DNA of 45,020 bases from a virus: the IMG/VR virus record IMGVR_UViG_3300005939_000012, one strand, 5' to 3'. The translations under genes and the position numbers were made by a program. The first letter of the stretch is position 1; each line of letters begins with the position of its first letter. The notes under the pieces are model-generated. The model was not told where the DNA came from, searched no databases, and saw only the letters and a program-made list of their open reading frames with translations. Positions 15,438-17,110 of the stretch are shown in pieces.

Positions 15438-16009
15438 GTAAATCTATTAAAATTTAAACGTTCTTTAAAATATTGAAATAATTAGCATCGCGTGAGATGC
15501 TACTACAATGAGAGTTGGTTCGCCCATACTCAACGTAGAAGAGATAGCTCTAGGTAACTGGAGTGAAGGGGATAGCTGGATTTCTCAGGCTACCCGCCAT
15601 CTTAGGATGGTTAATTTACGTAAGCTTCAACAAACCAGGGCCCAACCCTGGCATTCAGTAAAATGGATGTAGTTGGTAAGTTATGAGAGTAATGGACTTT
15701 TGGAAAATATAAGATTAGTAAACTGCCTGAGCTTCGGCGAAGGGTACAGGGCTTTTTAAATTAGGGGTGACACCCATCCATTATTCGATGTCGACATAAC
15801 GAGTAACGAAATGTTAAGGAGTAGAGTTTCTGTTTAAGTCCTGTGAGGGACGAAGGCTAGGATTCAATATTAATGGTTAAGGCGACAGCCGGTATCGTGA
15901 AATATGGCACAGTAGGGACTTTCTAACCTGAAACGCAGAGTCGGTTGAGTATTATATACCTCAAAAGGGTATGTAGCTTTGATCAAGCACCGACTTAGAG
16001 GGAGACAAA

Positions 16010-16079
16010 TTTTAGATTAGCTCAGTGTAGAGCAATTGCCTTAGGAGCAATGGGTCGGTGGGTCAAACCATCATCTGTA
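16010..16079 (+). tRNA. tRNA-like element, anticodon loop CTTAGGA (TAG), atypical T-loop
   Basis: Canonical D-arm TAGCTCAGTGTAGAGCA and anticodon arm ATTGC/GCAAT. The T-loop is GTCAAA(C). The acceptor TTTAGAT/ATCTGTA has one mismatch. Confidence 0.35.
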
Positions 16080-16882
16080 AAAATTATATGTTAAACGCAA
16101 AGACTTGGTCGGTCTTAGAAAGAAAATCGCTTAATCCTTCAGCCGTGATGGTAATGAAGGACCAGGAAACTCGCAAGGTGGATTGGTTTGATGAGGAGAC
16201 ATCCCTTTAGGCTTAGCCGCTTATTAATGGTAGTAAAATATCAAGGAGGACAAGAACATCGAGTATTTCTTTGACAATAGTGGAAAAGCTACCACTTTAA
16301 ATAAAGCAGCGTTGCTGGTAGACTACCCGAAGGGGGAGTGGATAAGTGGCTAACCAATACTGTCGCAGGTGGTTGGGTACGGCTAACGAAGGTATCAAGC
16401 ATAAGGGGTATAATCTCAACCCAAAATCGGTGTAGCTAAACAGGGCTAACGTGGTTCGATTCCACAACACTGTCAAAAAGAAATAGGTCCTAAGTATCTG
16501 GATGACCGCCGCGGAAGGTCTAAGATAACCGTACCTTAGCATATAGAAATACAAATCGAATAAGCCAGGAGGCGAAAGCCGTTGATACTGAAAGTAGATG
16601 AGTATGGAGGATTGGGTTTTAAAGCTCTTCGGAGTGTCCTTATAAAGTTAAGTGTGTGGTGGCCGTAAATATAAAGGTTTATGTGGGTTCCTCCTTATAG
16701 GTGAAGGTCAAAACTTCAGTAAAAAGTCCACTTTAAAATATATGGGCAAACGCGGGCATAGACATAGCCTGCCCTATTTAGTAAGCTGCAGACGAAACGT
16801 AGGACCGTGGTTCAAATCCACCGTTGCTCACCGCATTGAAAAGCACCCGCCTCGGGGTTAAGAGGAGTTACTGACACTCGGT

Positions 16883-17010
16883 CAGAGGTTTTACTGGTAG
16901 TTCCATATTTATCAGAGGTTTTACCGTATTCCAGATAAACGGAGGTTTTACTGATTGTCCATATAAGTCAGAGGTTGCATCGGTATCCACATAGGCCGAC
17001 AGGTTTTGAG
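16883..17010 (+). repeat. iteron-like tandem repeats (about 29-nt unit x4-5)
   Basis: CAGAGGTTTTAC recurs at 16883, 16913, 16940 and 16969, degenerate at 16999. Each spacer has a second submotif TCCA(T/G/C)ATA. Confidence 0.6.
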
Positions 17011-17110
17011 CCAGTTTACTATACAAAATGGCCTGGGCTGAGCTTAGTCTTAGGAGTTGAATCCGTAAGTGAAAACCGATCTGAAATAACGTAGAAGTAC
17101 GATCGGCTAT

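Follow-up and report, generated by a model that had tools for sequence, protein, structure and literature searches.

Positions 15440-17100 of the virus record IMGVR_UViG_3300005939_000012 (IMG/VR; 45,020 nt, the whole stretch of DNA analyzed, hereafter the window) raise the question of what is encoded by about 1.65 kb of phage DNA that has no credible open reading frame (ORF) and a raised GC content, 42.5% compared with 31.9% for the whole window. A preliminary description, made from the letters alone, had pointed out both features and proposed unidentified structured RNA, probably more than one molecule, rather than protein. The results support structured RNA, and several RNAs; the main component is not unidentified, being a GOLLD RNA recovered by the cmscan search which that description itself had proposed. 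GOLLD RNAs are among the largest noncoding RNAs (ncRNAs) of bacteria and phages, and the nanocage that they form is bigger than the ribosome. Most probably the segment is an ncRNA gene cluster ending a phage tRNA island, in which GOLLD and a set of accessory modules would be parts of one precursor that is cut at tRNA-shaped elements. The known RNA makes up ~60% of the segment, and the remaining ~680 nt are made up of separate modules that have been reshuffled.

Structured RNA rather than protein

No ORF of more than 85 amino acids was found in 15440-17100 on either strand. A protein read under an alternative genetic code, which the preliminary description had set against its own RNA reading, might be considered for this phage, which has a suppressor-type tRNA with a CUA anticodon (23630-23703, + strand; labeled Pyl by ARAGORN, the same tRNA being present in L002 and L019). 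When TAG, TGA or TAA is read through, the longest open frames are 125, 116 and 214 codons, respectively, none of which spans the segment, whereas a coding stretch of equal length gives 553 codons under the same test. The flanking genes stop at TAA or TAG (17 and 3, respectively, of the 20 large ORFs checked), and the substitutions among relatives compensate base pairs and are not patterned by codon. An alternative code was rejected on the recoded frames, and its probability is considered negligible.

Single-sequence folding energies are no better than those of shuffled sequences (z scores of -0.23 and -1.67), and the case for structure is therefore comparative, not thermodynamic. It draws on ~20 relatives (68-83% identity) found by scanning viral and metagenome contigs with a pattern; loci and contigs are referred to below by L numbers. 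A nucleotide search of the INPHARED phages with 15380-17210 returned short tRNA matches only, and IMG/VR gave no match in a protein-based search with a small flanking ORF, or in exact-pattern scans with both T-arm motifs, the loop of the M3 module and the 5' motif of the long form of the M2 module (both modules are described below). Among the sets scanned, the accessory RNAs occur only in metagenome contigs. A scan of host genomes gave one clear relative, in the contig of a Bacteroidales metagenome-assembled genome, a weak hint that the host lineage of this low-GC phage leans toward Bacteroidota.

A full-length GOLLD RNA

The conserved 3' domain of GOLLD lies at 15937-16422 (+), where the Rfam model RF02032, which spans that domain only, is matched by cmscan over its whole length (model positions 1-416 of 416; 154.7 bits against a gathering score of 150; E = 1.5e-41). 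The same model gives 152-182 bits in 17 relatives, all above the cut-off. Upstream, at 15458-15936 (+), there is an ornate, subfamily-specific 5' domain, and the homology of the relatives to the window starts at 15456-15458. With 10 relatives aligned, the 479 nt of the 5' domain have 109 predicted pairs, 58 of them with compensatory changes, and 95.3% of the cells are paired, compared with 37-47% in slid controls; these values are for a structure derived from the same alignment that scored the covariation, and for a comparison within the subfamily. From the RF02032 match, together with the homology and covariation of the 5' domain, it follows that GOLLD spans ~15458-16422 (965 nt). This region encodes a full-length GOLLD RNA, consisting of the 5' domain and the conserved 3' domain plus a linker in which a decayed tRNA is embedded.

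The GOLLD span takes in the hairpins that the preliminary description had listed in the 5' part of the segment. AGCATC/GATGCT and CCAGGG/CCCTGG exist as drawn, and both are helices of the 5' domain in which the pairs covary; for another of the hairpins named in that description, GGGCA/TGCCC, the relatives back a register shifted by one, CGGGC/GCCUG.

Previous work has shown that GOLLD consists of a 5' region of ~420 nt, which is the less conserved, a 3' region ~410 nt long and a linker that is disordered (PMC12286853), that the linker sometimes holds a tRNA, and that mature GOLLD self-assembles in vitro into a multimeric nanocage with the linker facing inwards, the dihedral homo-oligomeric cage being known from cryo-EM of other GOLLD members (PMC12286853, PMC12990946). 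In the window the tRNA-like element noted in the preliminary description is at 16011-16080 (+), inside the linker region of RF02032, and an insert occurs at the same place in 15 relatives. It scores 46.4 bits with the Rfam tRNA model and is not called by ARAGORN. Its anticodon stem covaries, and the anticodon itself drifts among orthologs (UAG, UUG, UGG, or loops of 8 nt). The D-loop GG and T-loop UUC are both lost, save in L148 and L136, and the T-loop in the window is a noncanonical GUCAAA of 6 nt, so that the D-loop GG, the UUCRANY T-loop and the stable anticodon of a canonical tRNA are all lacking at 16011-16080. Its appearance is that of a former tRNA which, through decay, became a structural insert.

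A mini tRNA-like element directly 3' of GOLLD

Directly after GOLLD, at 16428-16472 (+), lies a 45-nt element with the form of a miniature tRNA. Its acceptor-like stem has 6 bp, its D-like hairpin 3 bp and a loop containing GG, and its T arm 4 bp and the canonical loop UUCGAUU; an anticodon arm is absent. The preliminary description had regarded its T arm, and a second one further 3', as orphans for which no 5' acceptor strand existed nearby. Both in fact have covarying partners: all six pairs of the acceptor-like stem 16428-16433/16467-16472 covary in 7 relatives, and the second motif is closed by 16744-16752/16822-16829. Since each T arm is part of a compact, closed tRNA-like fold with a matching, covarying 5' strand, the intron-containing or permuted tRNA genes offered as candidates, and split tRNA genes, are not supported; for the same reason the motifs are not 3'-only remnants of integrase attachment (att) sites.

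In the alignment of 7 sequences of the mini-tRNA, 100% of the cells are paired and 9 of the 13 pairs show compensatory changes. None of 500 shuffles matched the observed values, and slid controls were 35-55% paired. The minimum-energy fold agrees in essence, adding one pair to the D-like stem. A covariance model of the element finds one match per locus, always directly 3' of GOLLD. In the subfamily, 14 of 16 GOLLDs have the mini-tRNA, a longer variant or a complete tRNA after them, in most cases no more than ~12 nt away (~52 nt in L148). The element lacks the anticodon arm and 7-nt anticodon loop of a tRNA, and neither ARAGORN nor the Rfam tRNA models match it; the sole match of the Rfam tmRNA model in the region, of 7 bits at 16453-16463, falls on its T arm.

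Accessory RNAs between GOLLD and tRNA-Leu(CAA)

The cluster closes with tRNA-Leu(CAA) at 17111-17193 (+), identified by both ARAGORN and Rfam. Between it and GOLLD, an all-against-all comparison of the related loci divides the sequence into independent pieces, which in the window are the mini-tRNA and three further structured RNAs, here termed M2, M3 and M4. ARAGORN makes no tRNA or tmRNA call in these post-GOLLD modules (16428-17105), and at E values up to 10 no Rfam family matches them in the window, nor in the relative L143. Models of ROOL, group I and II introns, RNase P RNA, 6S RNA and signal recognition particle (SRP) RNA likewise gave no match at E up to 10 in 15150-17300 or in L143 (7500-8835), in agreement with the preliminary description, in which no tmRNA, RNase P RNA, SRP RNA or group II domain V motif had been matched by eye. 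Its suggestion of a novel phage ncRNA does not hold for the GOLLD part; for the three modules in 16485-17105, which covary and have no Rfam family, it may still apply.

M2 (~250 nt) occupies 16485-16740 (+) and is defined by homology and covariation. It starts with GGUCCUAAG, followed by the hairpin GACC[GCCGCGGAA]GGUC. About 220 nt are common to L131 and L142, and the core, 16534-16653, occurs also in L150 and L130, there as the 3' part of a longer RNA. The closing helix covaries, with four versions (CCUUAGC/GUUAAG, CCAUAGC/GUUAUGG, CCAAAC/GUUUGG and UCAAAU/AUUUGA), and one inner pair is present as 4 pair types. A long form of M2 (300-420 nt) is found in L132, L143, L133, L154 and L136, 50-420 nt downstream of GOLLD. 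It opens with an 18-nt box, considered below, and a hairpin, and has conserved ends (5' GGUCCUAAGGUAGUACCGGGA-CCGCGAGG; 3' GGCGGCC...CUCGAAUUC) around a central domain that is swapped between loci; the two ends pair, 5' UUGAAUUCG with 3' CGAAUUCAA, the latter lying just ahead of M3, and as read off the sequences this pairing is AAUCCG/CGGAUU in L133. Common to the short and long forms are GGUCCUAAG and a hairpin that covaries and has CGCG in its loop. L132 and L143 have in common another module, of ~230 nt, which ends in a terminator-like hairpin.

M3, at 16744-16832 (+), is an 89-nt cloverleaf-like RNA with four helices: an acceptor-like stem with a bulged A (16744-16752 pairing with 16822-16829), a 5-bp hairpin, a second 5-bp hairpin with a 21-nt loop, UUAGUAAGCUGCAGACGAAAC, and a T-like arm. 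Across 7 sequences 98% of the cells are paired and 9 of the 22 pairs show compensatory changes, with none of 500 shuffles matching these values and slid controls at 33-47%. Strong matches to an M3 covariance model (62-115 bits) are confined to loci of this GOLLD subfamily. The "anticodon" loop is strongly conserved and has 21 nt, not the 7 nt of a tRNA, and the tRNA and tmRNA models of ARAGORN and Rfam do not match.

The sequence of this loop, GCA...UAG, raised the possibility that M3 is a miniature tmRNA-like molecule, or a chargeable tRNA mimic acting on ribosomes, with the loop as a template (GCA GAC GAA ACG UAG). M3 does have a tRNA-like acceptor/T stack with an A discriminator, and its loop can be read as UAGUAAGCU-GCA-GAC-GAA-ACG-UAG with the in-frame stop kept in L131 (as UAA), presumably resembling the resume region of Escherichia coli tmRNA; a PTH2 peptidyl-tRNA hydrolase gene (22641-22922, +) and the suppressor tRNA are also in the window. 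By contrast, the structure is confined to four short helices, with neither the long P2 helix nor a pseudoknot, and the G-U wobble is at acceptor position 2:71, not 3:70. The would-be tag has 1-4 residues and no hydrophobic C-terminal degron, the stop in L143 comes straight after GCA, the loop substitutions have no codon-position pattern, and the T-loop is noncanonical (UGARAAY) in three orthologs. On structure, tag length and the model searches the tmRNA reading of M3 was rejected and is regarded as very improbable. The preliminary description had, more generally, listed a tmRNA-like molecule among its candidates; the tmRNA features looked for in M3 are lacking, and neither ARAGORN nor the Rfam models support such a molecule in the segment.

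M4 (~270 nt; 16836-17105, +) is a hairpin-repeat RNA. Six tandem hairpins (16871-17032; period ~27-30 nt) are separated by G/U-rich linkers, three of which are AGGUUUUA and the others variants of it, and there is a conserved 3' part with a hairpin at 17076-17081/17101-17106. Homologs are present at full length in L143 and in part in L154, where M4 precedes the other modules and ends in a mini tRNA-like fold of its own. The consensus of the three sequences has 43 pairs, 12 with compensatory changes; e.g. CCGAUC/GAUCGG is CUGGUC/GACCAG in L143. The stems vary between units and between orthologs yet still pair, and the linker is conserved. A pairing of the M4 linker (UUUUAC) with a loop of the GOLLD 5' domain (GUAAAA) was considered and dropped, as it is not conserved in relatives. 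The repeats at 16881-16985 were also compared with a CRISPR array, for which repeats of 23-50 nt and unique spacers of similar length were expected; the period of 27-30 nt is here the total of a 19-nt repeat and ~10 nt, the units being hairpin plus linker, and this identity was rejected.

It might be argued that 16475-17105 is nonfunctional or acts at the DNA level, as decayed tRNA genes, integrase att remnants or iterons built on the 27-30-nt repeats. Tandem direct repeats are indeed present, gene debris is to be expected in a tRNA island rich in homing endonucleases, and the folding energy is, as stated above, no better than that of shuffled sequences. Compensatory changes nevertheless hold the helices of M2, M3 and M4 across relatives of 68-81% identity, and the combination in M4 of stems that vary while still pairing with a conserved linker is the opposite of an iteron pattern. 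The iteron and att-remnant readings, like that of a CRISPR array, were rejected on covariation, and an origin of this kind for the interval as a whole is thought very doubtful. Each post-GOLLD module is conserved with compensatory changes, and is gained, lost and reordered independently among the related phages.

Signals at the 5' edge

The preliminary description placed the segment downstream of a phage promoter motif. The motif, TTTTTTATCCCA-N9-TGGTTATATT at 15409-15437 (+), is a truly recurrent element, with 12 matches in the window compared with 1.15 expected, a number reached by 0 of 100 shuffles; its copies are nearly always on the + strand and ahead of genes. In L128, L130, L142 and L148 it likewise lies upstream of GOLLD, and it is a putative promoter on the evidence of its sequence and position.

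The 5' edge of GOLLD itself carries a conserved 18-nt box, ACGTTCTTTAAAATATTGAA (15458-15477, +), an imperfect palindrome (TTC..GAA). The exact core of the box occurs in 13 of 17 relatives, 460-478 nt upstream of the start of the Rfam 3' domain, and at the GOLLD 5' edge whichever element lies upstream, be it the promoter motif, the 3' end of a tRNA or a hairpin. As indicated above, the long form of M2 also begins with this box. Candidate functions are a compact promoter, an operator and a processing signal, the first of which would make some modules separate transcripts.

Two further copies of the box, each with 2 mismatches, were observed in the window. One, at 14998 (+), comes right after the stop of the ORF at 14792-14995 and is followed by ~125 nt with raised GC and without an ORF of more than 40 amino acids; this region (14998-15141, +) may be another small RNA module, and its sole homolog is in the near-identical contig L003. 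The other (29005-29022, +) is 18 nt downstream of a TGGTTATATT promoter-like motif, and, in antisense orientation, overlaps the 3' end of the gene for a GIY-YIG homing endonuclease (28998-29675, - strand).

Organization and proposed processing of the cluster

The order GOLLD, variable RNA interval, tRNA-Leu(CAA) is kept in 9 loci, with intervals ranging from 10 nt in L019, where the tRNA-Leu follows GOLLD directly, to 1219 nt in L143 (688 nt in the window). Among the related loci, L064 and L149 have the mini-tRNA alone, L131 has the mini-tRNA, M2 and M3, and in L154 M4 stands ahead of M3. In the window all elements are on the + strand, with gaps of 3-12 nt and one promoter motif upstream. No convincing terminator is predicted before 17716; the lone terminator-like match within the cluster (16871-16885) is the first M4 hairpin. 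Cotranscription of GOLLD with tRNAs has been suggested earlier (PMC5737381).

By this proposal a single precursor including all the modules would be transcribed from the promoter-like motif at 15409-15437. RNase P would cut 5' of each tRNA-shaped element, and RNase Z or exonucleases would trim the 3' side; mature GOLLD and its companion RNAs would thus be set free, in the manner of tRNA-punctuated transcripts. RNase P and RNase Z recognize the acceptor/T-arm stack and the elbow of their substrates, and an anticodon arm is not needed. The mini-tRNA retains the stack and a D-loop/T-loop elbow, the sole missing part being the anticodon arm, and should therefore suffice for cleavage.

An alternative is that the whole 1.65 kb is one giant RNA, i.e. 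an extended GOLLD in which 16423-17105 is a 3' extension of the mature molecule. In its favor, all elements follow one another on the same strand, the gaps are very short and no terminator intervenes; the mini-tRNA, which is found solely right after GOLLD, could be a structural part of it. Against this, the downstream modules come, go or change order where GOLLD stays intact, the Rfam model stops at 16422, as does the homology in L064 and L019, and tRNA-shaped elements between modules are classic cleavage signals. A single mature RNA is accordingly judged unlikely, and a precursor cut into separate RNAs is preferred.

Several points weigh against a GOLLD-containing precursor matured in this way. 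The GOLLD score in the window is just 4.7 bits over the curated cut-off, though relatives reach 182 bits. A tRNA starts within 30 nt of the GOLLD 3' end in only 12% of 100 distinct viral-contig loci; tight tRNA abutment is consequently a trait of the subfamily and not GOLLD-wide, and the notion of a tRNA directly after every GOLLD, which is true of only 12-17% of these loci (the T-loop motif occurring in 6% of random control windows), was abandoned. The box at the 5' edge of both GOLLD and long-form M2 could be a separate promoter giving independent transcripts. The high conservation of the M3 loop suggests a role beyond marking a cleavage site, and M4 is the weakest module, with 3 sequences only. 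Lastly, cotranscription and RNase P/Z processing are themselves deduced from the arrangement of the elements.

Neighboring genes and possible partners of the GOLLD cage

Downstream of the cluster, 17804-20221 (+) encodes an 805-residue protein with Major Vault Protein (MVP) shoulder and repeat domains (Pfam E = 3.5e-27 and 5.4e-12). An MVP-like gene (67-94% identity) is downstream of the GOLLD/tRNA-Leu cluster in all relatives with enough flanking sequence, i.e. L154, L143, L141, L136, L148 and L131. A search with the protein led to a single relative, L001, in which the 10 kb upstream of the gene contain neither GOLLD nor tRNAs. An earlier article reports phage MVPs (bioRxiv 10.1101/2023.11.10.566534) and does not mention GOLLD.

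It is conceivable, though at present an outside chance, that the mini-tRNA, the GGUCCUAAG-type RNA (M2), M3 with its loop of 21 nt and M4 with its Shine-Dalgarno-like linkers are new families that serve as cargo, assembly factors or release factors of the GOLLD nanocage. On this reading the vault-like gene could be part of the same module, with an RNA cage paired with a protein cage; it is the conserved neighborhood alone that suggests a functional coupling to the cage.

Upstream of the promoter-like motif, 15142-15373 (+) contains a tRNA-Leu-like gene split by an insert of ~150 nt. Its acceptor strands (ACCUGUA/UAUAGGU) are 215 nt apart, the D arm is tRNA-Leu-like and the T arm canonical, there is no proper 7-nt anticodon loop, and the minimum-energy fold closes the acceptor and T arm; no relatives of 15142-15373 were found for analysis of covariation. 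The tRNA island (7500-17200) has 17 same-strand tRNA genes, with duplicates including 3 Gln, 3 Glu, 2 Phe, 2 Tyr and 5 Leu, and an extra, weak tRNA at 7634-7704 is detected by Rfam and not by ARAGORN. Genes like those of homing endonucleases are also present in the island (GIY-YIG/NUMOD3, 11505-12308; DUF559-type, 10157-10936). Elsewhere on the + strand are auxiliary genes unusual for a phage, encoding a flotillin/SPFH protein (3051-4601), a nicotinate phosphoribosyltransferase (34021-35220), a TonB-dependent receptor (37616-39574) and a NadR-like AAA_28/adenylyltransferase protein (41481-42515); the phosphoribosyltransferase and the NadR-like protein suggest NAD salvage.

Comparison with known systems

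Of the systems with which the locus may be compared, tmRNA resembles M3 in having an acceptor/T-arm stack and a conserved single-stranded stretch with GCA and then an in-frame stop; M3 differs in having no pseudoknots, P2 helix, G3-U70 pair, degron-like tag or model match. ROOL RNA (RF03087) is, like GOLLD, a large, ornate, nanocage-forming phage RNA found near tRNA islands, and would be a plausible identity for the 680 nt that GOLLD leaves unexplained, but its model did not match even at E values up to 10.

The MALAT1-mascRNA transcript, mitochondrial transcripts and the phage T4 tRNA cluster, which includes two cotranscribed stable RNAs, all mature by tRNA-punctuated processing. The present cluster is similar in that tRNA or tRNA-like folds lie directly between longer RNAs, and RNase P and RNase Z would define the flanking ends. 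The likeness is one of the proposed mechanism only, not of sequence membership, and the Rfam mascRNA model has no match in the window.

A closer precedent is the GOLLD of a Mycobacterium tRNA array, with a tRNA-Phe embedded in the J13/15 linker (Morgado et al. 2020, PMC7549688, as cited in PMC12990946). Both loci have a GOLLD within a tRNA array and a tRNA in the J13/15 linker; by contrast, the embedded element in the window does not look like a working tRNA (no D-loop GG, a 6-nt T-loop and a drifting anticodon), and the host lineage is different, the low-GC phage studied here giving a weak hint of Bacteroidota.

The similarity to GOLLD as originally described (RF02032; Weinberg et al. 2009) is extensive, and includes the full 3'-domain model matched above the curated cut-off, a structured and more variable 5' domain of ~480 nt directly upstream, a tRNA in the variable linker after the first hairpin of the 3' domain, and the setting in a phage genome with a tRNA array, the window having 18 same-strand tRNA genes and the relatives being in viral contigs. 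The differences are that the linker tRNA is without elbow motifs or a stable anticodon, that an 18-nt box marks the 5' edge, and that a dedicated mini tRNA-like element lies 3'; for the 5' domain the comparison is one within the subfamily. Neither Rfam 15 nor the literature searched describes the mini-tRNA 3' of GOLLD, the M2, M3 and M4 RNAs, the box at the 5' edge or the synteny with the vault-like gene, each of which has 3-10 supporting sequences. The main component belongs to a known family and occurs where that family is usually found, and the bulk of the RNA that had appeared unidentified was recoverable by a routine Rfam search. To that family the locus adds a well-delimited GOLLD from a low-GC environmental phage, together with a subfamily of ~20 relatives that keeps a set of neighbors, i.e. 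the 5' box, the 3' mini-tRNA, the variable structured RNAs, tRNA-Leu(CAA) and the gene for the vault-like protein, which are leads on how GOLLD is made, perhaps by tRNA-guided end formation, and on its possible partners.

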